In this document: positions 3,162 to 48,574 of the stretch, in pieces
Position numbering within the stretch: position 1 is the stretch's first letter
Layout: each line of letters opens with the position of its first letter
DNA from: Candidatus Aminicenantes bacterium
Lineage (GTDB): Bacteria > Acidobacteriota > Aminicenantia > Aminicenantales > Saccharicenantaceae
Direction of reading: 5' to 3'
DNA: 64,000 nucleotides
NCBI GenBank assembly: GCA_037447475.1
Contig: JBBIGP010000004.1
Location: 7,713-71,712 of the forward strand
Made by a program: the position numbers and the translations under genes
The notes under the pieces: generated by a model
Seen by the model: the letters and a program-made list of their open reading frames with translations, nothing else
The model's database searches: none
What the model was told of the DNA's origin: nothing

Positions 3162-5079
3162 GGTCCCCGTCGTCGTCTTCATCGGCCAGCCGAACAGCGG
3201 CAAGAGCACCCTGTTCAATTCCATCGCCGGGCACAAGGCCGAAACGTCGAATTTCCCGGGCACGTCCATCCAGCATACCCATAGCCGCGTCAACATCGAG
3301 GGCCGGCTCCTCGACATCGTCGACCTGCCCGGCACCTACACCCTCTGCCCCACGGACCGGGCCGAGCAGGTCGTCCTCTCCCACCTTTTCTCCGAGAAGC
3401 CCGACCTCGTCGTCAACGTCGTCGACGCCTCGACGCTCAGCCGGAGCCTCGAGCTGACGCTCGAGCTCGTCGAGCTCGGGTACCCCCTGGTCGTCGCCCT
3501 CAACATGATGGACCTGGCGGAGAGGAAAGGCATCGAGGTCGACGCCGCGAAGCTCGGGTCCCTCCTCGGCGCGCCGGTCGTCCCGATCATTGCCGCCTTC
3601 GGCCGAGGGATCAGGGAGCTCCTGGAACAGGTTTTCTCGGTCCTGGACGGCGGGCAGCGCCTGCAGGGGATACAGGGGTCCGGGGACGTGGAGGACATGA
3701 TCGCCGAGATGGAAAGGCTTGTCCCCCCGGGCTTTCCCATCGTCGGGAACCGCCGGTTCACGGCCGTCAAGCTCATCGAGGCGGGCGGGATGGCCTGCGG
3801 CGACCTGATCGGCGAGGTCGACCCGGAACTGGCCTCCATTCTGGCCGGCATCCGAAAGGGACTCGAAGAGAGCCGCGGCGCGCCGGCCTACGAGATCATC
3901 TCCGCCGAACGCCACCACCTGGCCATGAAGTTCTTCGAGGAGTCGTGCCGCGTCCTGCGCGGCAGGCGCCTGACCTGGGAGACCAAGGCCGACGCCGTCC
4001 TCATGCATCCCGTCCTCGGCTATCTCATCCTGATCGCCGTGTTCCTGGCGTTCTTCTTCATCATCTTCAAGGTCGGCAACCCCCTCGAGGCCCTTCTCCT
4101 CGGGCCCTTCGAGGGCCTCAAGGACACGCTGGCCTCGCGCCTGGGCGACGGATTGGTTTTCTATCTCGCCGAAGGGCTCGTCCAGGGCGTGGGCGGGGGA
4201 GCGGCCATCGTCCTGCCCTATTTCCTCCCCCTGCTGTTCCTGATGGCCCTGCTCGAGGACCTCGGGTACCTGGCCCGGGCCGGCTTTCTCCTGGACACGT
4301 TCATGCACCGCATCGGGCTGCACGGGAAGTCGGTCTCGCCGTTCATCCTGGGCTTCGGTTGCAACGTCCCGGCCATCGTCTCGACGCGCATCCTCGAGTC
4401 GCACCGGGACCGGGTCCTGACTGCGCTGCTCATCCCGTTCATCCCGTGCGCCGCCCGGACGACGATCATCCTGGCCCTAGTGGCCTCCTATCTGGGCCCG
4501 CTCTGGGCCATGGGCTTCTATGTGGCCAACATCGCCGTCGTCGCCCTGGTCGGGGGCCTCCTCAGCCTGTTCCTCAAGGAGCCCTCGCCAGGGCTCATCC
4601 TGGAGATCCCGTCCCTCAAGGCGCCGCGGCCGGGCTCCGTTCTCCGCAAGACATGGCTCCAGATCCAATCGTTCATCAAATTCGCTTGGCCCATCCTCAT
4701 CGCCGGCAGCCTCGTGCTCAGCCTGATGGGTTTTTTCGGCCTCGACCGGCTGGTCAACGACATCCTCGCCCCTCTCGTTTCCAAGGGCCTGGGCCTGCCC
4801 CGCGAGCTGGGGGTCACCCTCGTTTTCGGCTTCCTGCGCAAGGAGCTGTCGCTCATCATGATGCTCCAGGCCCTGGGCGTGGAATACCAGGACCTGCTCT
4901 CGGCGATCACCCGGGAGCAGATCATCGTCTTCACGGTCTTCATCAGCTTTTTCATCCCCTGCCTGTCCACGTTCGCCATCCTCTGGAAGGAGATCGGGAA
5001 GAGATGGGCCTTCGTTTCGGTCGGCCTGAGCGTGTCCGTGGCTTTGGCACTGAGCTGGCTCGTCCGTTTGGTGATCTGA
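3148..5079 (+). CDS. feoB: ferrous iron transporter FeoB (GTPase + membrane permease)
   Basis: G-domain P-loop GQPNSGKSTLFN, then long polytopic membrane domain with 'Gate' motifs; alternative TTG start at 3133. Confidence 0.92.
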   Translation: MSGPRVPVVVFIGQPNSGKSTLFNSIAGHKAETSNFPGTSIQHTHSRVNIEGRLLDIVDLPGTYTLCPTDRAEQVVLSHLFSEKPDLVVNVVDASTLSRSLELTLELVELGYPLVVALNMMDLAERKGIEVDAAKLGSLLGAPVVPIIAAFGRGIRELLEQVFSVLDGGQRLQGIQGSGDVEDMIAEMERLVPPGFPIVGNRRFTAVKLIEAGGMACGDLIGEVDPELASILAGIRKGLEESRGAPAYEIISAERHHLAMKFFEESCRVLRGRRLTWETKADAVLMHPVLGYLILIAVFLAFFFIIFKVGNPLEALLLGPFEGLKDTLASRLGDGLVFYLAEGLVQGVGGGAAIVLPYFLPLLFLMALLEDLGYLARAGFLLDTFMHRIGLHGKSVSPFILGFGCNVPAIVSTRILESHRDRVLTALLIPFIPCAARTTIILALVASYLGPLWAMGFYVANIAVVALVGGLLSLFLKEPSPGLILEIPSLKAPRPGSVLRKTWLQIQSFIKFAWPILIAGSLVLSLMGFFGLDRLVNDILAPLVSKGLGLPRELGVTLVFGFLRKELSLIMMLQALGVEYQDLLSAITREQIIVFTVFISFFIPCLSTFAILWKEIGKRWAFVSVGLSVSVALALSWLVRLVI

Positions 5080-5101: not shown

Positions 5102-7231
5102 ATGAACCACAGCGCCCCCGTCCCCGAACGCATCGGCCGCTTGGCCGAGCTCGCCGACAATCTCTGGTGGAGCTGGCATCCTCCGGCGAGGGCGCTCTTC
5201 AAGGCCGTCAGCCTGCCGCTCTGGCGGGCAACGCTGCACAATCCCGTCCGGATCCTCCAGACGGTCAGTCCGGAGCGCCTGGACGCCTTGTCCCGGGACC
5301 CGCGGTTCCTCGACCTCTATGACCGGGTCATGACGGCCTTCGACACCGAGCTGAAGAACGGCCATCTCTGGTTCCCGAAAAACCATTCCGAGCTGCGGGA
5401 TCCCGTGGCCTATTTCTCGGCGGAGTTCGGTCTTCACAGCTCCCTGCCGATCTATTCCGGGGGGCTCGGCGTCCTCTCCGGGGACCACTGCAAGGAGGCC
5501 GGCGATCTCGGGCTGCCGCTCGTCGGCGTGGGCTTCATCTATCCGCAGGGCTATTTCCGGCAGATCATGCCGCCCGACGGCTGGCAGCAGGCCGTCTATG
5601 ACACCCTGAATTATGATCATGTCCCCCTCCACCTCGTGACGGGAGCGGACGGCAAGAGGCTGCTCGTCGAAGTGACGCTCAAGGCCGTCCCCATCTACGT
5701 CCAGGTCTGGCGGGTCAACGCCGGCCGGGTCCCCATTTTTCTGATGGACACGAACATCGACCGCAACGCCCCCTGGGACCGGGACCTGACGGCGCGGCTC
5801 TACGGCGGCGACCAGGAGGTCCGCGTCCGCCAGGAGATGGTCCTCGGCCTCGGCGGGGTCCGGGTCCTGCGGGCCCTGGGCATCGATCCGGCCGCCTGGC
5901 ACATGAACGAGGGCCATTCGGCGTTCCTGCTCCTCGAGCGTCTTCGCGAGGCGACCCACAGGGGCCTTCTGTGGGAGCAGGCCATCGACGAAGTCCGGAG
6001 AGCGACCGTCTTCACGACCCACACGCCCGTTCCGGCCGGCCACGACGCTTTCCCGTTCCACCTCATCGACGAATATTTCGGCCGGTTCTGGCAGGACATG
6101 GGCATCAGCCGGGAACAGTTCCTGGCCCTCGGCGAGTTCGACGGCCGGTTCAACATGACCGTGCTGGCCCTGCGCCTGGCCGGACGGTCGAACGGCGTCA
6201 GCCGGCTCCATGGCGAGGTCTCGCGGCGGATGTGGCAGCCCGTCTGGCCCGACAGGCGGCCGGAGGACGTGCCCATCGGGGCCATCACCAACGGCGTCCA
6301 CGCCCCGGGCTGGATCGCGTCGTCCCTGAAATCGGTCTTCGCGGAGCGCTTGGGAGGCGACTGGCTCGACCGCCACGACGATCCGGCCCTCTGGGACAGG
6401 ATCGACGACGTCCCCGACGAGGTCCTATGGGCGGCCCACATGGACCTGAAGGCCAAGCTGTTGGCCAGGATCCACGACCGTTCCCGGCAGCGTTGGACGT
6501 CCGGCTCCATGGACGCCAGCCAGATCATGCCGTCGGGGGCCCTGCTCGACCCCGACGCCCTGACCATCGGCTTCGCCCGGCGATTCGCCACCTACAAGCG
6601 GGCGACGCTCGTGTTCCACGACGAGCGCAGACTGAACCGCATCCTCCAGTCCGAGAGCCGGCCCGTCCAGATCATCTTCACCGGCAAGGCCCACCCCGCG
6701 GACGGCCAAGGCAAGGAGTTCATCCAGAAGGTCTATCACTATGCCCAGTCCACGGAGTTCGGCGGGAGGATCGCCTTCTTGGAGGACTACAACTTGCACA
6801 TCGCCCACTTCCTCGTCCAGGGCGTGGACCTCTGGCTCAACACGCCCCGGCGGCCCAACGAGGCCAGCGGGACGAGCGGCATGAAGGCGGCCATGAACGG
6901 GGTCCCGAACCTGAGCGTCCTCGACGGATGGTGGGCGGAATCCCACCGGCCCGCGGCGGAAGGGCGGGCGGCCAACGGCTGGGCCTTCGGCGAGGCCGAA
7001 TACGGCGACTGGGACACCCAGGACGAGATGGACAGCCAGGCCCTCTACCGCCTCCTCGAGGAGGAGATCGTCCCGCTCTATTACGACCGCGGCGCCGACG
7101 GCATCCCGAGAGGCTGGATCAAGGTCATGAAGGAGGCCATGAGGACCAGCCTGGCCGCCTTCTCCATGCGCCGCATGGTCAAGGAGTACATCGAGCGGAT
7201 GTATCTGCCGGCCATGCGCCGCGAGGGTTGA
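5102..7231 (+). CDS. glgP: alpha-glucan (glycogen/maltodextrin) phosphorylase, GT35 'alpha-glucan phosphorylase' subfamily
   Basis: 709 aa; N-terminal LAELADNLWWSWHP signature of the short bacterial/archaeal alpha-glucan phosphorylase family; PLP-lysine region ...FTGKAHPADGQGKEFIQ...SGTSGMKAAMNG. Confidence 0.85.
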   Translation: MNHSAPVPERIGRLAELADNLWWSWHPPARALFKAVSLPLWRATLHNPVRILQTVSPERLDALSRDPRFLDLYDRVMTAFDTELKNGHLWFPKNHSELRDPVAYFSAEFGLHSSLPIYSGGLGVLSGDHCKEAGDLGLPLVGVGFIYPQGYFRQIMPPDGWQQAVYDTLNYDHVPLHLVTGADGKRLLVEVTLKAVPIYVQVWRVNAGRVPIFLMDTNIDRNAPWDRDLTARLYGGDQEVRVRQEMVLGLGGVRVLRALGIDPAAWHMNEGHSAFLLLERLREATHRGLLWEQAIDEVRRATVFTTHTPVPAGHDAFPFHLIDEYFGRFWQDMGISREQFLALGEFDGRFNMTVLALRLAGRSNGVSRLHGEVSRRMWQPVWPDRRPEDVPIGAITNGVHAPGWIASSLKSVFAERLGGDWLDRHDDPALWDRIDDVPDEVLWAAHMDLKAKLLARIHDRSRQRWTSGSMDASQIMPSGALLDPDALTIGFARRFATYKRATLVFHDERRLNRILQSESRPVQIIFTGKAHPADGQGKEFIQKVYHYAQSTEFGGRIAFLEDYNLHIAHFLVQGVDLWLNTPRRPNEASGTSGMKAAMNGVPNLSVLDGWWAESHRPAAEGRAANGWAFGEAEYGDWDTQDEMDSQALYRLLEEEIVPLYYDRGADGIPRGWIKVMKEAMRTSLAAFSMRRMVKEYIERMYLPAMRREG

Positions 7232-7304: not shown

Positions 7305-9095
7305 CTATTTCTTATTGAGGTTCTCCCGAACCTTGGCGGCGGCCGTTCGGCCGACGATCCTCTCCAGATCGGGGACCGGGGCGGCTTGGACCGCCTCGAG
7401 ACTCCCGTAGCGCGCCAACAGAGCGGCCTTTTTCTTGGGCCCGAGGCCGGGGATCCCATCGAGCTCCGAGGCGAAGCTGCGCTTTTCTCGCCGGCCCCGG
7501 TGGTAGGAGATCGCAAATCGGTGGGCCTCGTCCCGGACGGCCTGGACGAGCTTGAGGGCCGCCGACGTCCGCGGCAGACGGAGACCTTGCGGCGCCCCGG
7601 CGGTGAAGAGGATCTCCTCGCGCTTGGCGATCGAGACGAGCGGAAGGTCTTCGAGGCCGAGGCCGGAGAGGGCCTTGCGGGCGGCCGAGAGCTGGGGCCT
7701 GCCGCCGTCGACCATGACCAGGTCGGGGAGGGGCCCCCGCTCCTCGAGGACCCGGCGGTACCGCCGGATGATGACCTCCTCGAGGCTGGCGACGTCGTTG
7801 GGGCCCTCGACCGTCCGGACCCGATATTTCCTGTAGGCGTCCTTGTCGGGCCGGCCGTCCCGGAAGACGACCAGCGAGCTGACCGGTTCCTCGCCGCCCG
7901 TGTTCGAGACGTCGAAGCCTTCGATCGTCCGCGGCGGTCTTTCCAGGCCGAGCGCCTGTTGCAGGGCTTCGAGAGGGCCCGGCCCCGGGGCCGTCTTGTG
8001 AAGGTGGGCCTCGGCGTTGCGGGCGGCCAGGGCCACGAGCTTGAGGTCCCGGCCGCCCCGGGGGACGTGAAGGGGTGAGCGGCGCCCGGTCCGCCCGCCG
8101 AGGACGGTCTCGAGGGCTTCGGCGTTCGTCGGCCGGAAGGGGAGCAACAGGCGCGGCGGGATCTCGCGGTCCGAAGGGCTCCCGTAGAATCCGGCAAGGA
8201 GCTTGCCCAGGACATCGGCGTCCGGCACCCCGGCGGGAGCCTCGATGAGGGCCGCCTCGGAGCTGCGGATCTTGCCCCGGCGCATGAAGAAGACGTGGAC
8301 GGCGGCCCGGTCCCCCTCCCGGGCGAATCCGGCCGCGTCCTGGTCCTCGAGGGCCACGGAGATCGACCGGGGCCGGTCCCGCATGTCCTCGACGGTCCGC
8401 AGGACGTCGCGCCAGCGGGCCGCCTCCTCGAACCTCTGCTCCCGGGCCGCCCCTTCCATCCGCTCGCGAAGGGTTCTTGCCAGCTCGGGCATGCGGCCTT
8501 CGAGAAAAAGGCATGCGGCCTCGACGTCGCGGCGGTAACCCTCTTCGGAGATGAATCCCACGCAGGGGGCCGAGCAGAGCTTCAGCTCATATTCGAGACA
8601 GGGTCGCTTCCGTCCCCGGAACACGGCATTCTCGCATCCCCGGACGCCGAAGAGCTTGTTGACGAGGTGGATTGACGTCCGGGCCCGGCGGGCGGGGCTG
8701 AACGGGCCGAAGTAGCGGGACGCGTCGCGCTCGACCCGGCGGCTCGAATAGACGCCGGGGAACATCTCGCCGGCCGTCACTTTGAGGCAGGGGAAGCTCT
8801 TGTCGTCCTTGAGCCGGAGGTTGAAGCGCGGCTGGTGGCGCTGGACGTAGTTGTTCTCGAGGAAGGCCGCCTCCTTCTCGGAGCCCGCCAGGACATAGTC
8901 GATGGACGCCGTCTCCCGGAGGATCGCCCGGACCTTGACGTCGGGGTCCGGCAGGAAGTACGACCGGACGCGGTCGCGCAGGGAGCGGGCCTTGCCGATG
9001 TAGACGACCTCGCCGGCGGCGTTCTTGAAGAAGTAGATCCCGGGCTTGGCCGGCATCTCCGCGGCCCGGGCCTTGAGGCGGTCGTCGGCGCTCAT
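7305..9095 (-). CDS. uvrC: excinuclease ABC subunit C
   Basis: 596 aa; GIY-YIG N-terminus (PGIYFFKNAAGEVVYIGKARSLRDR), UvrBC-binding and C-terminal HhH; adjacent to uvrB. Confidence 0.93.
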   Translation of the reverse strand: MSADDRLKARAAEMPAKPGIYFFKNAAGEVVYIGKARSLRDRVRSYFLPDPDVKVRAILRETASIDYVLAGSEKEAAFLENNYVQRHQPRFNLRLKDDKSFPCLKVTAGEMFPGVYSSRRVERDASRYFGPFSPARRARTSIHLVNKLFGVRGCENAVFRGRKRPCLEYELKLCSAPCVGFISEEGYRRDVEAACLFLEGRMPELARTLRERMEGAAREQRFEEAARWRDVLRTVEDMRDRPRSISVALEDQDAAGFAREGDRAAVHVFFMRRGKIRSSEAALIEAPAGVPDADVLGKLLAGFYGSPSDREIPPRLLLPFRPTNAEALETVLGGRTGRRSPLHVPRGGRDLKLVALAARNAEAHLHKTAPGPGPLEALQQALGLERPPRTIEGFDVSNTGGEEPVSSLVVFRDGRPDKDAYRKYRVRTVEGPNDVASLEEVIIRRYRRVLEERGPLPDLVMVDGGRPQLSAARKALSGLGLEDLPLVSIAKREEILFTAGAPQGLRLPRTSAALKLVQAVRDEAHRFAISYHRGRREKRSFASELDGIPGLGPKKKAALLARYGSLEAVQAAPVPDLERIVGRTAAAKVRENLNKK

Positions 9096-11527: not shown

Positions 11528-11646
11528 GGGTGGTCCTCCCGTCTGGCCGGTCTGAACGGTCCACTGCGATTATAGGGGGGCCTCCGGAGCCTGTCAACGC
11601 TGCTTTGAAACGCCCGGGAAATGTGCTAGAATGCGGCTTTCCGTGA

Positions 11647-11721
11647 GCGGGCATAGCTCAATGGTAGAGTACCGGCTTCCCAAGCCGGGTGTTGTGGGTT
11701 CGAGTCCCATTGCCCGCTCCA
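11647..11721 (+). tRNA. tRNA-Gly (anticodon CCC), CCA encoded
   Basis: gcgggcatagctcaatggtagagtaccggcttCCCaagccgggtgttgtgggttcgagtcccattgcccgctcca: 7-bp acceptor, D-arm, anticodon loop ttCCCaa, T-arm GGTTCGAGTCC; coordinates read by hand, +/-2 nt. Confidence 0.85.
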
Positions 11722-11729
11722 TTTTTTTA

Positions 11730-11819
11730 GAGGGGGTCAAATCTCCACTTATTAAATTTTGGACGGCGCGTCGACCATGAACGAAAAATTCGATAATAAG
11801 TGGAGATTTGACCCCCTCT
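11730..11819. repeat. AT-rich ~90 bp palindromic element, copy A (30-bp inverted arms gagggggtcaaatctccacttattaaatttt around 24-bp spacer)
   Basis: Left arm at 11730-11760 is the near-perfect reverse complement of 11785-11819. Second copy at 46834-46921. Sits between tRNA-Gly 3' end (preceded by T7 run) and the LipB-like gene start. Confidence 0.8.
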
Positions 11820-11863
11820 GGTCTTTGATCGTTGAGCCGGAACCCCTCCCCGGGGCCCGGAAC

Positions 11864-19941: not shown

Positions 19942-19975
19942 GGGGGACATGCACTTCTGGTCCCCCTTTCTTTCT
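19942..19975 (+). terminator. putative rho-independent terminator (agggggac...gtccccc stem + TTTCTTTCT)
   Basis: 7-bp GC stem gggggac/gtccccc with 11-nt loop followed by T-rich tract, inside an unusually AT-rich 260-bp intergenic segment between convergent htrA and trmH-like genes. Confidence 0.5.
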
Positions 19976-23062: not shown

Positions 23063-23212
23063 GTCAAGGTCCTCCGGGCGCCTTCACGGCGATCGTTCCA
23101 AGCGGCATTCTCATACGACCCCTTCGAGGGGTCAATCACCCCTAAAGGTGATTCGAAGGGTGATATCTCACCCCCTCGAGGTCACCCCGTCACCCGATCC
23201 TTTTTCTATCCT

Positions 23213-41915: not shown

Positions 41916-43406
41916 TCAGGCTTTGGCAAGGGCATCCTGGGCGGTCTTCCGCCTTCGGTAGGCGGGAATGATCTTGAGACAGATGCCGATCAGGACGGCC
42001 ACGGCGAAGACGTTGAGGAGAGCGTAGTTTTCGATGTGAAGTCCGAGAAGGTGGACGCCGATGAGGACGGCCAGCGCTGAAAGCGTGTCTCCCCCCCTGA
42101 CAAAGAAGGTGTCGATAGCCGCCTTGGCTTTATACTTCTCCTCCCGCTTGGTGACCAGGAACAGCGCGGCCTTGGTCGTATTCTGAAGGGAATAGTCGGT
42201 GCCGTTCTCGAAGGCCTTGACCCAGCGGACGAGCACGAGAACGGCTCCGAAGGAAATCAGCGTGTAGCCGCCCAGGGCGATGAGAGGAAGGAAGAGCAAG
42301 GCCCCTCCCACGCCGATCCACTTGAAGATGCGCGAGACCAGGAAGAGCTGGATGATGAGGGCGATCAGATTGGTCAGGAACTGGTAGTTCATGAATGCGC
42401 TGTGAATGGCCTTGCTCTCCGTTCCGGCGGGCAAGGCCGGGGACGCCGCCGGGCGCTTCCGATCGGCTCCATCGTCGGGAAGCGGGACGAGCCGGCCCCG
42501 CGGGCCTCCCGCGGCTCCATCGGCTATCGACTCCCTGACCGTGACGGCGGTGATGATATATTCCCCGGTCGCATTGATGAAATTATAGAGGCCGATCATG
42601 GCCGCGATGAGAAGAAGGTAGCGGCTCTTGAAGATCAGCCGGAACCCTCCTCCCGCTCTTAGCGGCTGTTCACTGGCGACGCTTTCCTCCTCGGCCTTGG
42701 CCAGGCCCTTTTCGCGGGCCTCGCGGGTGTCCCGGACGGCCCGGTTGTGGATATGCCAGGCCAAGGCGATGCAGAGCAGCAGGATGAGGCCCGCGATGAG
42801 CATGAGCTCGTATTCCCAGTTCTCCCCCAGGATATCCCTCAACCGCTTCATGATCGGCAAGGTCGCGACGAGCCATCCGAGCGTGGCTCCCAGGGCGACG
42901 AGCGGAAACGTGCGCTTTCCGACCTCGTCCGAATAGAGGTCGTTCGCGAAGCCCCAGAACTGGGCGATCACGAAATAATTGAATATGCCGATCCAGATGA
43001 AGAACATGATCCCCATGGGCTTGACGGCCATCCCGCTCAAGTTGAGGAAATAGAAGACGACGAGGTTGGAGATGAAGAATGATGTTGTCCAAGTGATAAG
43101 GATATGCCGAGGCACCCTGGAAGCGAGGCGACTGAATGCCTTGATGACGAAGATGAAGAGAACGGCTTGGGCCCCGCTCAGGTAGCTCTTGACTTGAGGG
43201 GAACCCTGGTCAACAAGGAGAAGCGACTCGCGCAGCGGCTTGAGGATGTAGTAGGCCAGAAGCAAAAGAAAGATGTTGAGGGCGAGCAGGAGGGCCTTCA
43301 GGGCTTCCCCCTTGCGGACGTCGGCGAACAGCCTGAGGAAGCCGTAGCCGATGTTCGAAGTAGCGCCGCCCGACGGCGGGATCCCCCCGCGGATTCTATC
43401 CCCCAT
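41916..43406 (-). CDS. TLC/AAA-family ATP:ADP antiporter-like nucleotide transporter (Npt/Tlc homologue)
   Basis: 496 aa, ~12 TM; TLC signature LKALLLALNIFLLLLAYYILKPLRESLLLV; internal Gly/Pro/Ala-rich ~40-aa loop insertion (…ADGAAGGPRGRLVPLPDDGADRKRPAASPALPAGTE…). Confidence 0.65.
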   Translation of the reverse strand: MGDRIRGGIPPSGGATSNIGYGFLRLFADVRKGEALKALLLALNIFLLLLAYYILKPLRESLLLVDQGSPQVKSYLSGAQAVLFIFVIKAFSRLASRVPRHILITWTTSFFISNLVVFYFLNLSGMAVKPMGIMFFIWIGIFNYFVIAQFWGFANDLYSDEVGKRTFPLVALGATLGWLVATLPIMKRLRDILGENWEYELMLIAGLILLLCIALAWHIHNRAVRDTREAREKGLAKAEEESVASEQPLRAGGGFRLIFKSRYLLLIAAMIGLYNFINATGEYIITAVTVRESIADGAAGGPRGRLVPLPDDGADRKRPAASPALPAGTESKAIHSAFMNYQFLTNLIALIIQLFLVSRIFKWIGVGGALLFLPLIALGGYTLISFGAVLVLVRWVKAFENGTDYSLQNTTKAALFLVTKREEKYKAKAAIDTFFVRGGDTLSALAVLIGVHLLGLHIENYALLNVFAVAVLIGICLKIIPAYRRRKTAQDALAKA

Positions 43407-43427
43407 GTCGACCTCCCTCCGGGACGC

Positions 43428-45311
43428 TCAGATCAGGACATGGCCCTCCCCGCGGGTCTCGATGAGCCTTTTGATGATCCGGATGATGAGGTCACGGCGG
43501 GAATGGAGGGCTTCGATCTCTTCTTTGTCGAGATGGGGCGACAGAAGGAGGAAGACCGCCTTCCTGTCCCACCCCAGGAGCTTGCCGAAGAGGTCTTTCG
43601 AGCACTTGCGGATCTCGCATCCGGGCGGAAGGCTCTTCCGGGGCGCGAAGGCTTCCGAGAAATCGACGCGGTAGATCCGCTGGTCGTCGCGGCTGACGAG
43701 CACGTCCCGGTCGTTGTCGCACTCTTCGTGGACGAGCATCTCGAAGAGCCGCAGGTCTTCCCGGTCCCGCTCGAAGGCCGCGGGCCGGGCCGGGGCGAGC
43801 TTCTGCTCCTTCCAGTCGAATTCCGAGATGGCGTTCTCGACGAAGACCTGCAGGGAGCCGGGGATCCCGTCGATCTCCCGCTCGATGACAGGCGGGACGA
43901 ACGCCAGCTTGAGGTACTTGGCGAGGTCGTAAGCGGCCAGCTCGTAGCGGTAGCTGTCGGGGAGCGGGTGAGGGCGGCGCCGGTCGATGTACTTGAACAT
44001 GGCCCTGCGCGTGACGCCGTCCTTCTCGAGGGTCACCCGCCAAGGCTCCGTCCGCCCGGCGGCGGCCGTCTTGCGGGCCATGGCCTTGGCCGTCCTGAGG
44101 AACTCCTCGACGGCTTTGGCCGAAGCGAGCGGTTCCGGGCGGGTGACGACCGGAGAGCTGCGGGCGGCGGCCTCTTCCGTCTCGCCCCAGAGCTCGAACC
44201 GTCCGTCCTCGTAGATGAGGGCCGCGGGCAGGCCGCCGTAAAACTCGGAGATCCCGGTGTCGATGACGAAGACCTTGCCGCCGAAGCGGCTGACGGTCTC
44301 GAGGGTCGCGATGGGGCTCGACCCGGCGTTGTTGACAGGCAGATAGCTGTGGCCGACGACGATGGCCCGGGCCCCGAGGTTGTCCAGGATACGGTCGACC
44401 TCGGCCTGAGCGGTGCCTTCGATATGGGTCGTCAGGCCCCGGAACCAGACCGGGCCGTCCGGCGCGTAGACGAGCTTGGGCTTGAAGGGCCTAAAATAGC
44501 GATGAGGGGACTTGATCCTCTCCCGGAACTCCTCGAGCTCCTTTCTCATGAGGTCGTTCGTCTCGCGCAACGGCCGTTTCGAGTAGTGCTCGTTGACGCC
44601 CCCGTGGAGGTAGACGACGTCGTTGATCTTGATGATGGTGTTCTTCGTCAGCAGCCAGCTTCCGTACAGGTCGTTGAAGGCGTTGACATAGGCCAGGCGG
44701 GCCTCCCGGTCGTGGCGGATGACACGCTGCCAGTAGGCCCGCAGAGCTTCGTCCGTCCCGAGATCCAGGCCCTCGGCCTCGGCCTGGCGGCGCCGGTCGC
44801 GGGGGAGCCTGGCGATGTAGGCCGCTTCCAGGGACCTGCGGACGCCGTCCGGGAGGAAGGAGACGAACTGCTCGGGCGTGACGTACTGAGGATAGTCCAG
44901 GGCGATGCCGGTGATGTTCATCTCCTCGTGGTTGCCGATGAGGACGTGGACCAAGCCGCCGGCCGCCTCGGCTTCCTTTTCGAGGCGCATGAGAAGGTCC
45001 ATGATCTTCCTGGCGTCGGGGCCGCGGTCCATGATGTCGCCGAGCTGGACGAGGTGGGCCGTCCCGGCGGTCCATCGGAGGTCCGCGTCGATGACGCCGA
45101 CCTCGGGGTTCGAGAGGATGAAGACGAACCGGTCGTAGTCGCCGTGCAGGTCGCCGACGGCGACGACGCGGCCGACGCCGGACCAGGCATAGGGGATCTC
45201 GGAGGCGGGAGAGAGCGGGACATGGAGCAGGATGAGCAGGAGAAGAATAAACAGACCTTTGAGGGGCCGACATGGGGCCTGTCGCGACCATCCCCTGCTG
45301 CGTTCGGGCAT
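43428..45311 (-). CDS. secreted calcineurin-like metallophosphoesterase fused to divergent atypical-kinase-like domain (paralog 3)
   Basis: Signal peptide ...LFILLLLILLHVPLSPA; MPE motifs VVAVGDLHGDYDRF, LVQLGDIMDRGPDARKIM, VLIGNHEEMN, ...IVVGHS...; C-terminal 250 aa aligns with paralogs 1/2 (EEFLRTAK, YELAAYDLAKYLKLAFVPP, ...GHVLI) but catalytic-loop region altered (HEECDNDRDVLV; YRVDFSEAF). Confidence 0.6.
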   Translation of the reverse strand: MPERSRGWSRQAPCRPLKGLFILLLLILLHVPLSPASEIPYAWSGVGRVVAVGDLHGDYDRFVFILSNPEVGVIDADLRWTAGTAHLVQLGDIMDRGPDARKIMDLLMRLEKEAEAAGGLVHVLIGNHEEMNITGIALDYPQYVTPEQFVSFLPDGVRRSLEAAYIARLPRDRRRQAEAEGLDLGTDEALRAYWQRVIRHDREARLAYVNAFNDLYGSWLLTKNTIIKINDVVYLHGGVNEHYSKRPLRETNDLMRKELEEFRERIKSPHRYFRPFKPKLVYAPDGPVWFRGLTTHIEGTAQAEVDRILDNLGARAIVVGHSYLPVNNAGSSPIATLETVSRFGGKVFVIDTGISEFYGGLPAALIYEDGRFELWGETEEAAARSSPVVTRPEPLASAKAVEEFLRTAKAMARKTAAAGRTEPWRVTLEKDGVTRRAMFKYIDRRRPHPLPDSYRYELAAYDLAKYLKLAFVPPVIEREIDGIPGSLQVFVENAISEFDWKEQKLAPARPAAFERDREDLRLFEMLVHEECDNDRDVLVSRDDQRIYRVDFSEAFAPRKSLPPGCEIRKCSKDLFGKLLGWDRKAVFLLLSPHLDKEEIEALHSRRDLIIRIIKRLIETRGEGHVLI

Positions 45312-45477
45312 CTGTATCCCTTATACACGTTTTTGTGGTGGGAATCAACGGCTTGGCCGTCCACGATGCGTGTCATCGATAGACACCACGGGACCGGTCG
45401 TTTCCCATCAGGGGAGTGGAGCCGAAAGAATTGACTCCGCCGCCGGGCCCCTGATATCCTGAGGCGCGCGGGCAAGG

Positions 45478-46830
45478 GTGACGAAAGGACGGTGGACCGT
45501 GCGTTTCGGATCGTTCGTTGGTGTCATAGGGCTTGTGGGAATGTTTGTCGTTCTTGCCGGGGTTTCCGGCTGCAGGGGAGGCGGGCGGCCGGTCCCCTCC
45601 GAGGATGTCGCTGTGACGGTCAAGCCGGGCGTCGAGGTCTTCCTCGAGAGATATGTCGGGCTCGTGGAGGGCAAGCGCGTCGGCCTGATCACCAACCCGA
45701 CGGGAGTGGATGGGCGCCTGCGGTCGACGGTGGACCTGTTCGCCGGGAGCCCCGATATCGACCTGGTCGCGCTCTATGGCCCCGAACACGGCGTCAGGGG
45801 GAACGCGCAAGCCGGCGAATACGTGCCGTTCTACATCGACGACAAGTACGGTTTGCCCGTTTTCAGCCTCTACGGACAGTCGTTCAAGCCCCCGCCGGGC
45901 ATGCTCAAGGACATCGACGAGCACATGCGGTCGTTCGACACGGACATCGCCGGGAAGGTCCCCGAGAAAGCCATGGTCGAGAGCGTCGACGTCCTCGTCT
46001 TCGACGTCCAGGACGTGGGGACGAGGGTCTACACCTATATCGCCACCATGGCTTACGCGATGCAGGCGGCGGCCGAGAGCGGCATCGAGGTCATCGTCCT
46101 GGACCGCCCGAACCCCGTCAACGGCGTGGACATGGAGGGGCCGATCCTGGAGTATCCCGCATTCAGCTCGTTCGTCGGGCTCTATCCCGTCCCTGAGCGC
46201 TTCGGCATGACGATGGGCGAGCTGGCCCTGCTCTTCAACGACAGGTTCCTGGAGAAGAAGGCCCGTCTGACGGTCGTCGCCATGGAGGGCTGGAAGAGGC
46301 CGATGTGGTTCGACGATACGGGACTGCCCTGGATCATCCCTTCGCCCAACATGCCGACCCTCGACACGGCCACGGTCTATCCGGGCCAGGTCTATATCGA
46401 GGGGACGAACATGTCGGAAGGCCGGGGTACGACCCGGCCGTTCGAGCTGTTCGGAGCGCCTTGGATCGACGGCCACGAGCTGGCGAAAAGGCTCAACGGG
46501 CTCGGCTTGCCGGGCGTCGTCTTCCGGGAGACCTGGTTCACGCCGTGGTTCTCCAAGTTCCAAGGGCAGCTCTGCGGAGGCTGCCAGGTCCATGTCACGG
46601 ACAGGGAGGCATACCGGTCGTTCGGGACCGCGCTGCACGTCATCAAGACGGTCCGGGACATGTATCCGGACAAGTTCGCCTTCCATGCGGACTACTTCGA
46701 CAAGGTCATGGGGACGGACAAGGTCCGCCGGGCTCTCGAAGCGGGGGAGACCGTCCCAGCGATCCTCGAGAGACTGGAGCCCGGGCTGGCCGCCTTCGCC
46801 GCGCTCCGCCGCCCGTATCTGCTCTATTAG
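45478..46830 (+). CDS. DUF1343 family protein (exo-beta-N-acetylmuramidase NamZ-like), lipoprotein
   Basis: 450 aa; lipobox VLAGVSGC; conserved ...VGLITNPTGVD...VALYGPEHGVRG...VLVFDVQDVGTRVYTYI...LDRPNPVNG... Confidence 0.75.
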   Translation: MTKGRWTVRFGSFVGVIGLVGMFVVLAGVSGCRGGGRPVPSEDVAVTVKPGVEVFLERYVGLVEGKRVGLITNPTGVDGRLRSTVDLFAGSPDIDLVALYGPEHGVRGNAQAGEYVPFYIDDKYGLPVFSLYGQSFKPPPGMLKDIDEHMRSFDTDIAGKVPEKAMVESVDVLVFDVQDVGTRVYTYIATMAYAMQAAAESGIEVIVLDRPNPVNGVDMEGPILEYPAFSSFVGLYPVPERFGMTMGELALLFNDRFLEKKARLTVVAMEGWKRPMWFDDTGLPWIIPSPNMPTLDTATVYPGQVYIEGTNMSEGRGTTRPFELFGAPWIDGHELAKRLNGLGLPGVVFRETWFTPWFSKFQGQLCGGCQVHVTDREAYRSFGTALHVIKTVRDMYPDKFAFHADYFDKVMGTDKVRRALEAGETVPAILERLEPGLAAFAALRRPYLLY

Positions 46831-46833
46831 CAA

Positions 46834-46921
46834 GAAGGGGTCAAATCTCCACTCATTAAATTTTCAGCTGCCATGTCGTCGGGAAATCGAAAAATTTAAT
46901 GAGTGGAGATTTGACCCCCTC
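46834..46921. repeat. AT-rich ~88 bp palindromic element, copy B (arms gaaggggtcaaatctccactcattaaatttt / revcomp, 25-bp spacer)
   Basis: Arms 46834-46864 and 46890-46921 are reverse complements with a single mismatch; the same element is at 11730-11819. Both copies carry compensatory substitutions (cttatta vs ctcatta) that keep each copy self-complementary. Confidence 0.8.
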
Positions 46922-47002
46922 TTGTTGCATCCTTGCCGCTGTTCCCATAAAATGAATGCTCTTGCCTTACGGAGCCACAATCATAAAAAGGAGAGCGACG
47001 AG

Positions 47003-48574
47003 ATGGCGAACAAGACCCTTCACTACGCCCTGGTCAACCCGCTGTCCAAGTTCCTCGATAAGCCGGCCGCCGACTTCACCCGGGCCGACCTGCTCAGGGT
47101 CATCGAGGACCGGCAGATCGAGCGCATCACCTTCCACTACACGGCGGTCGACGGCAAGCTCAAGGAGCTCAAGATCCCGGTCGCCGGCCGGTCCCAGATC
47201 GAGGCCATCCTGGCCGAAGGCGAGCGGGCCGACGGCTCCTCGCTCTTCAAGGGCATGGTCGATATGGCTCTGTCGGACGTCTATATCGTGCCCCAGTACC
47301 GGTCGGCCTTTTTCAATCCGTTCGACGAGGGCAGCCTGGACTTCGTCTGCCGCTATCTGACCAAGGAGGGCGACCTCGCCCCGTTCACCCCGGACAACAT
47401 CCTGGCCCGGGCCGCTGCGATGTTCCGCCGGACGACCGGCCTCGAGTTCAACGCCCTGGGCGAGCTCGAGTTCTTCCTGCTCCTCGAGCCGTCGGACCGG
47501 AGGTACCCGGCCGAGCCTCAGCGCGGCTACCACGGCTCGTCTCCCTTCGTCCGCGGCGGCCCCATCCTCGACGAGATGCTGCGCCACATCGCCCGCGTCA
47601 CCGGGGCCGTCAAGTACGCCCACAGCGAGGTCGGCCTTGTGGACAGCCTGAAGAGCGACCTCGACGAGATCCGCGGCCGCCGGGCCGAGCAGATGGAGGT
47701 CGAGTACCTGCCCAAGCCCGTCGAGGACATGGCCGACGACCTGGTCATCGGCCGCTGGATCATCCGCAACACGGCCTACCGCCACAACGCGATCGCTACC
47801 TTCGCCCCCAAGCTCGAGGAAGGGGTGGCCGGCAGCGGCCTCCATTTCCATCTCGAGTTCACCAAGGACGGCCGCAACGTCATGGCCGGCCCCGACGGCA
47901 AGCTCACCGAGGCCGCCCGCAGGCTCGTCGGAGGCCTTTGCGAATACGCCGACTCGCTGACGGCTTTCGGCAACACGGTCTCTTCGGCCTACCTCCGCTT
48001 GGTCCCCCACCAGGAGGCCCCGACCCGCATCTGCTGGAGCGACCTCAACCGCAGCGCCCTCATCCGGGTGCCCCTCGGCTGGCACGGCCTCGGAAACCTG
48101 GCCCGGCGCGTCAATCCCCAAGAGACGGGGGAATTCGTCGACCCGCGCGGCGGCCGCCAGACCGTCGAGATCCGCAGCCCCGACGGCAGCGCCAACATCC
48201 ATCTGACCCTGGCCGGCATCTGCATGGCCGCCAACTGGGCTTTCGCCTCCGACCAGGACCTCCACAAGGACCATGGCCCTCTCGACCTCGCCGAGCGCCT
48301 CTACGTCAAGGGCAATATCTTCGCCGACAAGGAGCTCCTCAAGCGCCTGCCGACCCTGCCGTCGAGCTGTGTGGAATCGAGCCGCCTCCTCCTCAAGAAG
48401 CGGGCGCTTTACGAGCGCGACGGGATCTTCCCCCCGAGCGTCATCGACTGCGTCGCCCGCATGCTCCAGGCCGAGGACGACGAGGCCATGAACAAGAAGC
48501 TCGCCGGCCTGCCGGCCCACGAGCGGCTTCACGAGATCCGCAAGATCATGCACAAGGACCTCCACAAGCATTGA
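47003..48574 (+). CDS. glutamine synthetase catalytic-domain family protein (GS-like, divergent/type-III-like)
   Basis: Trimmed to MANKTLHYAL with AAAGGAG RBS; GS-like motifs GSGLHFHLEF and ...ICWSDLNRSALIRVP...; ~520 aa with extra N- and C-terminal regions. Confidence 0.7.
   Translation: MANKTLHYALVNPLSKFLDKPAADFTRADLLRVIEDRQIERITFHYTAVDGKLKELKIPVAGRSQIEAILAEGERADGSSLFKGMVDMALSDVYIVPQYRSAFFNPFDEGSLDFVCRYLTKEGDLAPFTPDNILARAAAMFRRTTGLEFNALGELEFFLLLEPSDRRYPAEPQRGYHGSSPFVRGGPILDEMLRHIARVTGAVKYAHSEVGLVDSLKSDLDEIRGRRAEQMEVEYLPKPVEDMADDLVIGRWIIRNTAYRHNAIATFAPKLEEGVAGSGLHFHLEFTKDGRNVMAGPDGKLTEAARRLVGGLCEYADSLTAFGNTVSSAYLRLVPHQEAPTRICWSDLNRSALIRVPLGWHGLGNLARRVNPQETGEFVDPRGGRQTVEIRSPDGSANIHLTLAGICMAANWAFASDQDLHKDHGPLDLAERLYVKGNIFADKELLKRLPTLPSSCVESSRLLLKKRALYERDGIFPPSVIDCVARMLQAEDDEAMNKKLAGLPAHERLHEIRKIMHKDLHKH

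Follow-up and report, generated by a model that had tools for sequence, protein, structure and literature searches.

A palindromic element upstream of a glutamine synthetase-like gene in Candidatus Aminicenantes is one copy of a dispersed hairpin repeat, probably tied to a RAYT/TIRYT-type Y1 transposase

A long palindrome lies just ahead of a glutamine synthetase-like (GS-like) gene in a Candidatus Aminicenantes bacterium, and the question it raises is whether it controls that gene or belongs to something larger. The DNA concerned, referred to here as the window, is the whole analysed stretch of 64,000 nucleotides (GenBank assembly GCA_037447475.1, contig JBBIGP010000004.1, positions 7,713 to 71,712 of the forward strand), in which a second palindrome of the same kind, copy A, accompanies the one at the GS-like gene, copy B. 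An earlier note, made from the letters of the window, had taken the pair as evidence of selection on a hairpin and had placed copy B in the leader of the GS-like gene, with a cis-regulatory role. Copy B proves to be one copy of a dispersed hairpin repeat of about 90 bp, and it is not specific to the GS-like gene. Both copies are most probably non-autonomous doublets of a terminal inverted repeat (TIR), that is, two inverted AAGARGGGGTCAAATCTCCACTYATTAA units of 28 nt around a freely evolving spacer, and are tied to a Y1 transposase of the RAYT/TIRYT type. The parts of the two copies are these:

46832-46859, plus strand: left 28-nt TIR unit of copy B (AAGAAGGGGTCAAATCTCCACTCATTAA)
46836, plus strand: polymorphic R position of copy B, an A opposite C46919, uncompensated family-wide
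46854, plus strand: covarying Y position of copy B, a C that pairs with G46901 (in copy A, T11750 with A11798)
46860-46895: spacer or loop of copy B, conserved neither between copies nor between orthologs
46896-46923, minus strand: right 28-nt TIR unit of copy B (reverse complement AAGAGGGGGTCAAATCTCCACTCATTAA)
11728-11755, plus strand: left TIR unit of copy A (tAGAGGGGGTCAAATCTCCACTTATTAA)
11793-11820, minus strand: right TIR unit of copy A
11647-11721, plus strand: tRNA-Gly(CCC), directly upstream of copy A, which begins 7 nt past it

The arms of copy B (46831-46864 and 46891-46924) are 34 nt long, 97% complementary and separated by 26 nt, and the A46836·C46919 pair is their sole mismatch, as had been reported for arm position 3. 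Those of copy A (11729-11754 and 11794-11819) are 26 nt long and 100% complementary. Where copy A reads cttatta, copy B reads ctcatta, with T11750 replaced by C46854 and the partner A11798 by G46901, so that the pair stays Watson-Crick, and on this point the earlier note was right. The spacers of the two copies have nothing but their A/T-rich inner ends in common; the window has a G+C content of about 66%, and the inner arms are A/T-rich. On both strands the hairpin folds at -51 to -57 kcal/mol as RNA (z -9 to -12 against shuffles) and at -33 to -35 kcal/mol as single-stranded DNA (z -9.6 to -12.6), while single arms reach -2.3 and 0 kcal/mol (z -1.1 and +1.1), no better than their shuffles do. 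When the window was scanned with the 28-nt arm pattern at three or fewer mismatches, one arm of copy A and both arms of copy B were recovered, three occurrences against 0.00 expected, and A and B are the only family copies that the window holds. Two short hairpins, at 19943-19965 and 23128-23142, were considered as further members and were unconvincing.

The wider family was sought with a single-arm pattern in which the variable base was set to N and the partner arm was left free, in one genome per species. This gave 48 loci (numbered with an L below), all within three related metagenome-assembled genomes (MAGs), with 49 paired elements, representing about 32 independent loci, and 12 lone arms; every MAG copy was found by way of a perfect 21-nt arm. 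The genome of the window is a fourth, with 77-87% DNA identity to two of the MAGs over aligned stretches, and its copies stand at orthologous sites, copy A at that of L003 and copy B at that of L020 and L009. The conserved unit is 28 nt long, AAGA-R-GGGGTCAAATCTCCACT-Y-ATTAA, with arm positions 1-15 and 19-23 near-invariant across 98 arms and no conservation beyond the units or between them. Almost all contigs from a metagenome scan were identical to one MAG and make up no independent replication set, the only new lineages being L056, L069 and L071, and a scan of viral sequences for the repeat gave 0 hits. Two of the MAGs are labelled Candidatus Aminicenantes and the third 'uncultured Eubacteriales' (the CAYREO01 contigs: L005-L007, L011, L012, L015, L023, L031, L037, L038, L044, L045 and L048); it nonetheless has orthologous loci in common with the other two, and the same transposase slot, described below, so that its label is probably wrong.

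A distribution of this kind bears directly on the possibility that the palindrome is a gene-specific operator or RNA leader (a riboswitch, attenuator or small RNA) for the GS-like gene. The strength of the hairpin and its place 78-82 nt upstream of the ATG would suit such a role, but dozens of copies lie beside unrelated genes in both orientations, the spacer is unconserved, the element is upstream of a conserved -10-like box, and the hairpin matches no Rfam family at gathering score, only generic miRNA-hairpin models; a gene-specific role is accordingly very improbable.

Covariation was scored on an alignment of the arms alone, with 47 distinct elements and 33 pairs, in which 87.3% of the cells are paired. 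The score of the whole helix, 0.103, exceeds that of all 500 shuffles (0.075 in shuffles) and of every slid control (0.028-0.082), and the signal survives the collapse of orthologs. The Y pair, at position 18, is UA in 26 elements, CG in 13, AU in one, UG in one and unpaired in six; once orthologs are merged into 32 loci, concordance is seen in 27.2 where 16.6 would be expected (p<=0.005), and the corresponding values at position 16 are 28.2 against 23.9 (median p 0.005, worst 0.035). Switches of a pair at one and the same site are also seen, between copy A (T:A, with G:C at position 0) and L003 (C:G, with A:T), whose spacers are still homologous, between L004 and L024 at position 18, and between L010 and L012 at position 16. 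Intermediates with a change in one arm only occur at both of these positions, and in L020 the ortholog of copy B has the T·G one. The R position at the base of the stem, position 0, behaves otherwise: with 21 AU, 12 GU, 3 GC and 11 A·C it shows no correlation between arms (p about 0.8), and what the earlier note had named as refuting its reading, arm mismatches without compensation, does occur there. Since positions 16 and 18 are concordant and position 0 is uncorrelated, pairing is kept at interior positions of the stem and not at its base, and the arm sequence is otherwise almost fixed. The earlier claim that selection acts on the hairpin and not on the primary sequence is therefore only partly right: the covariation extends beyond one duplicated lineage and points to selection or homogenisation for pairing, but with near-invariance over most of the arm the primary sequence is strongly constrained as well. 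In two elements, L045_4905 (4905-4998) and L028_1204 (1204-1285), several arm positions are off consensus, with identical changes in both arms.

Most copies occupy orthologous positions. In 19 cross-genome ortholog pairs the identity is 0.93 in the arms, 0.80 in 100-nt flanks and 0.69 in the spacers, although the contrast between arms and flanks is inflated by the search itself, which took in only copies with a perfect 21-nt arm. Four ortholog pairs have a spacer that is reverse-complemented in place between co-linear flanks:

L007 7072 versus L033 207
L010 1899 versus L012 4459
L015 6393 versus L030 1357
L040 1131 versus L071 3411

For the first of these the spacer identity is 0.98 inverted and 0.50 direct. 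Since the spacers were flipped in place, exchange between the arms is indicated, and the flips may be just that, unless they are assembly artefacts or reflect heterogeneity in the population. At other orthologous sites mini-hairpin remnants are found (L043, about 185-209; L007, about 7487-7528; for example AAGAAGGGGTcaacatcaACCCCTTCT) in which the outer 10 bp or so of each arm are kept; these remnants look like small bidirectional terminators. At L033 619-697 there is a doublet of another TIR type where the ortholog L022 (2118-2212) has a full family copy; in the orthology grouping the L022 site and the L007/L033 site count as neighbouring, separate loci. This other-subtype doublet, GGGGTCAAACCTAC, which thus shares a site with a copy of the present family (family 1), also occurs nested beside the transposase gene, at L078 5866-5923.

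Flips and remnants raise the prospect that the concordance of the arms stems from concerted evolution, by inter-arm recombination, gene conversion or fold-back synthesis, and could owe nothing to selection on the hairpin; the identity of the element would be unchanged. The flips in four ortholog pairs speak for inter-arm exchange, and the internal symmetric deletions that leave mini-hairpins are what is expected of unstable palindromes. Position 0, however, lies on the same arm and has not been homogenised (A·C or G·U in 23 of the 47 elements), positions 16 and 18 have intermediates changed in one arm only, a simple crossover would exchange segments of the arms without making them alike, and the flips themselves are possibly artefactual or a product of mixed populations. 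Concerted evolution is a possibility to be taken seriously, if a somewhat doubtful one.

What ties the repeat to an enzyme is a gene that the same arms flank. In each of the three MAGs two inverted arms 1.06 kb apart enclose an open reading frame (ORF) of 321 amino acids (aa), and the six lone arms of L017, L021 and L038 are those that border it. Inverted repeats of 28-37 nt stand on both sides of the gene at these loci and at three further ones:

L017, 280-1245, minus strand: 321-aa transposase gene
L021, 153-1118, plus strand: the same
L038, 6286-7251, plus strand: the same
L078-L080, about 6001-6975, plus strand: the RAYT-like gene in the same chromosomal slot

The protein matches Pfam Y1_Tnp above cutoff and has more than 6,000 homologs, the close ones being 315-340 aa long, from Aminicenantales or Acidobacteriota and, where named, called 'REP element-mobilizing transposase RayT' or 'transposase'. 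Its motifs are NHYH, FQ and YIHVNP; the HUH histidines (H60, H62), Q99 and the residues Y119, H121, N123 and P124 (Y119-x-H-x-N-P) are invariant across 50 homologs. While a search of the PDB with the single sequence returned only noise, so that a profile and a structural model had to be used, the AlphaFold (AF2) model (pLDDT 84.6) has as its top match 4er8, the E. coli TnpA-REP (RAYT) with a bound REP hairpin (E 5e-6, TM 0.72, root-mean-square deviation 2.2 Å), followed by the ISDra2, IS200 and IS608 transposases. The C-terminal domain of the model matches the DnaA DNA-binding domain 3pvp (TM 0.75 by structure; E 0.002 by profile), and the tail gives a weak Pfam Bac_DnaA_C match (E 0.004, below the gathering score).

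Homologs of 52-65% identity occupy the same chromosomal slot, between a gene for a SIS-domain protein of about 725 aa and a convergent lysine-2,3-aminomutase-like (LAM_C radical-SAM) gene, and the flanking TIRs have diverged along with the protein, being GGGGTCAAACCTCCACTTTTAC on both sides in L080, GGGGTCAAACCTACACTTTTC on both sides in L079 and the T16/C18 variant of the family arm on both sides in L078. Judged by its sequence and modelled fold, the 321-aa protein is a predicted HUH/Y1 transposase of the RAYT/TIRYT type that has been inherited vertically. One sub-motif, CTNCACT at arm positions 9-17 (window 46845-46853 and 11741-11749), is common to the diverged TIR variants and is similar to the core of a DnaA box, TT[AT]TNCACA, while the tail of the enzyme is like DnaA domain IV; the match taken alone is at chance level. 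The arm sequence TCTCCAC was likewise tried as a DnaA box and is a lead only, with 6 of 9 positions matching, again at chance level (about 0.4 expected, an estimate).

The nature of this enzyme, together with the edges of the elements, also bears on whether the copies are classical miniature inverted-repeat transposable elements (MITEs) derived from a DDE-type insertion sequence, with an incidental hairpin. Inverted repeats of about 28-34 bp, a length of about 90 bp and intergenic positions are all in keeping with that, yet no target-site duplications were found, with 0 to 1 matches for k>=4 at each boundary definition, and the only coding partner found between arms is an HUH/Y1 enzyme and not a DDE transposase. 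Such an origin is hardly credible.

The copies are best regarded as TIR doublets, probably served by the Y1 enzyme, and of the options in the earlier note it is transposase recognition that fits best. The enzyme would recognise the arm sequence, and the doublet would fold into a long hairpin on single-stranded DNA, the form in which it would be cut, moved, flipped or repaired. If the hairpin and arm are the substrate of the enzyme, as is proposed, this would account for a constrained arm sequence in which the few changes that are tolerated, at positions 16 and 18, last chiefly where both arms have them. Several findings weigh against this reading, among them the uncorrelated stem base, the inflated contrast of arms and flanks and the scope for inter-arm recombination already described. 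No such transposase is encoded within the 64-kb window, so the link to the enzyme rests on the relatives, at 80-87% DNA identity. The sole NCBIfam match of the protein, to REP_Tyr_transpos (repetitive extragenic palindrome (REP)-associated tyrosine transposase, NF047646), scores 66.6 bits, below the equivalog cutoff of 80. The few ortholog views obtained independently of the arm pattern show decay or replacement, and among the fetched loci there is no empty site or recent insertion, only remnants and replacements; candidate empty sites turned out to be deletion remnants or the doublet of a different TIR type.

The arrangement is that of the TIRtron and its TIRYT, and the doublets behave like REPINs. 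A TIRtron, according to the part of the report by Di Nocera, De Gregorio and Rocco (2013, PMC3733652) drawn on here, is a RAYT-like 'TIRYT' gene between long TIRs that share GGGGWSAS, and some TIR families are moderately abundant and often dimeric, one of them in the acidobacterium Koribacter. In the relatives, though not in the window, a RAYT-like Y1 gene likewise lies within long TIRs, without GTAG-tagged REPs. Dispersed TIR copies, again as in TIRtrons, are mostly dimers (49 doublets and few lone arms in the three MAGs, two doublets in the window). The start of the family TIR, GGGGTCAA, agrees with GGGGWSAS at 7 of the 8 positions, its last base being A where S is expected. Covariation, retention at orthologous sites, spacer flips, adjacency to stop codons and -35 spacing are not described for TIRtrons in that part of the report (PMC3733652).

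By the classification of Quentin et al. (2018, PMC6006769), TIRYTs make up TnpA-REP subclass 2.1 (RAYT Group 1 in Bertels et al. 2017, PMC5581495), marked by the motifs NH[YF]H, FQ and Y[IV]HLNP with DnaA_C-like or helix-turn-helix tails. It is by its motifs (NHYH, FQ and YIHVNP, with V for L) and its DnaA_C-like helix-turn-helix tail that the present enzyme is assigned there. Quentin et al. saw no repeats close to the genes of subclass 2.1 (PMC6006769), and Bertels et al. tied abundant repeats to Groups 2 and 3 only, with low counts of flanking 16-mers for Group 1 (PMC5581495); the clear-cut repeat family in Aminicenantes differs from both reports.

With REPINs the family shares inverted conserved units, a less conserved spacer, a long hairpin as single-stranded DNA or RNA, extragenic positions, a vertically inherited cognate Y1 gene bordered by the same units, and compensatory changes, which are common in REPIN hairpins (Bertels and Rainey 2011, PMC3116915). 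It differs in that its units are not themselves palindromes, where a REP unit is a palindrome of 20-40 nt, in that the 28-nt unit has no GTAG on either strand, in that its spacers are essentially unconserved, and in that its enzyme is twice as long as in REPIN/RAYT systems, with an extra DnaA-like domain. The HUH/Y1 catalytic fold, the absence of target-site duplication and hairpin DNA as the expected substrate are shared with IS200/IS605 elements (IS608, ISDra2), but the ends of those are subterminal imperfect hairpins instead of long TIRs, and they are multi-copy and autonomous, whereas the transposase gene of this family sits in one fixed slot. In Neisseria Correia elements and ERIC, MITE or insertion-sequence ends make hybrid promoters or terminators; such elements stem from DDE insertion sequences and come with target-site duplications. 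An outward -35 box in the terminal repeat and a strong RNA hairpin adjoining coding regions recall them, but the present family has no target-site duplications, and its promoter and terminator roles are putative. A literature search found no paper on such repeats in Aminicenantes, nor on this TIR sequence.

How the elements sit relative to genes returns the argument to the region between the NamZ-like gene and the GS-like gene (47003-48574; Gln-synt_C and Gln-synt_N), where the following features flank or overlap copy B:

46828-46830, plus strand: TAG stop codon of the NamZ-like gene (45478-46830), directly abutting copy B, 6 nt before the GGGG core
46911-46916, plus strand: outward TTGACC in the right arm of copy B
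46925-46953, plus strand: candidate promoter of the GS-like gene, TTGCAT (46925-46930), 17 nt, TAAAAT (46948-46953), missed by a consensus scan
46987-47005, plus strand: ribosome-binding site (RBS) AAAGGAG (46987-46993), 9 nt before the ATG (47003)

The distance of about 82 nt from 46921 to the ATG, and the AAAGGAG, are as the earlier note gave them. For the family as a whole, gene ends were taken from the stop codon and coding signature of frames beside the elements. At 16 of 30 independent loci such a frame stops 11 nt or less from the GGGG core on at least one side, at four of them on both sides; the TAA that opens TAAGAR is itself the stop codon in 11 arms. The arms around the transposase gene also abut the stops of both convergent neighbours, and in the L020 and L009 orthologs of copy B the TAG of the NamZ-like gene overlaps the GGGG core. 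With the hairpin directly past stop codons and its G/C-rich base followed by UUCUU, a terminator-like structure at the transcript end is probable from position, and 3' ends would then lie at ...CCCCUUCUU. The stem base GGGG...CCCC with UUCUU after it resembles the hairpin at 19943-19965, an ordinary-looking bidirectional intrinsic terminator between convergent ORFs (GGGGGAC...GTCCCCC, then TTTCTTT). A consensus scan for promoters and terminators found nothing relevant at copy B, the hairpin loop being beyond the limit of the tool.

Each arm carries one outward-facing, -35-like TTGACC, which from its position could act as the -35 box of the next gene. A -10-like hexamer lies exactly 17 nt outside it in 11 of 94 arms, or 7 independent loci where 0.7-1.6 would be expected (P 1e-5 to 1e-3). 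RBS-like sequence and an ATG come after it each time, while the 10 nt in between are unrelated from one locus to the next; starts would lie about 7 nt past the -10-like boxes in L004, L005, L009, L010, L020 and L048. Both orthologs of copy B are in this phase (L020, TTGACC-17-TAGAAT; L009, TTGACC-17-TAAAAT), whereas copy B itself has a 14-nt insertion (about 46925-46938) that puts its TTGACC 31 nt from TAAAAT. Since the -10-like box downstream of the element, TAAAAT in the window, is conserved in L020 and L009, copy B probably lies, if that box is used, upstream of the promoter of the GS-like gene and outside its leader, contrary to the placement in the earlier note, and the hairpin RNA would form the 3' terminus of the transcript of the NamZ-like gene. 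Cis-regulation remains plausible by way of the outward TTGACC rather than as a leader, the spacing in copy B being 31 nt. Elsewhere in the window a perfect TTGACA-17-TATAAT at 11597-11569 (minus strand) faces a bactofilin gene, and TTGAAA-16-TAGAAT with a TG extension stands at 11605-11632 (plus strand) before tRNA-Gly, from which it appears that consensus sigma-70 promoters are used in this organism.

Stop-codon abutment and the phase of -35 and -10 boxes suggest that the host makes use of the elements. Carried further, this could mean that they are host cis-elements outright, bidirectional terminators that also carry a portable -35 box, retained locus by locus through purifying selection, with any role of the transposase over. 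Many copies are kept at orthologous sites across species, their arms abut stop codons, the -10-like box stands at exactly 17 nt at 7 loci with RBS-like sequence and ATG beyond, remnants retain just the G/C stem base and A/T tracts, and the ordinary terminator at 19943-19965 is of the same style. Yet neither a terminator nor a -35 box needs 28 invariant nucleotides, the same arms border the Y1 gene and co-diverge with it, the catalytic residues of the enzyme are intact and conserved, and the promoter spacing of copy B is broken. A purely host-driven origin of the conservation is unlikely, and in any case it overlaps with the transposase-tied reading and does not exclude it. A more speculative picture joins the two: a long-lived domesticated system in which a fixed-locus Y1 enzyme with a DnaA-like domain flips, homogenises or replaces hairpin modules, CTNCACT being a 'DnaA-box-like' site for its C-terminal domain, while the host uses the modules as transcript-end hairpins at stop codons and as portable -35 halves. 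At present this is an outside possibility.

What had appeared to be a gene-specific regulatory palindrome is a genome-wide, transposase-tied repeat, and annotation of the control region of the GS-like gene should reckon with it. For the REP/REPIN field it offers a clear example from beyond the Proteobacteria: in an uncultured clade related to Acidobacteriota, a Group-1 or subclass-2.1 RAYT-like enzyme, of a kind generally reported without repeat populations, is paired with a defined hairpin family. The gene has a deep vertical descent at a single locus, TIR and protein have co-diverged, and spacers are flipped in place. The novelty is modest and consists of the clade in which the family occurs, that deep vertical descent, the flipped spacers, the abutment to stop codons and the phase of the -35 and -10 boxes, paired arm changes being a known trait of such elements.

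Two other features of the window may be recorded. Upstream of the NamZ-like gene, a 776-aa ORF without a Pfam match (43104-45434, plus strand) is overlapped by an antisense ORF with a similar coding signature. The intergenic stretch 23120-23200 carries many short inverted repeats, GGTGA and TCACCCC, that are unrelated to the hairpin repeat family.

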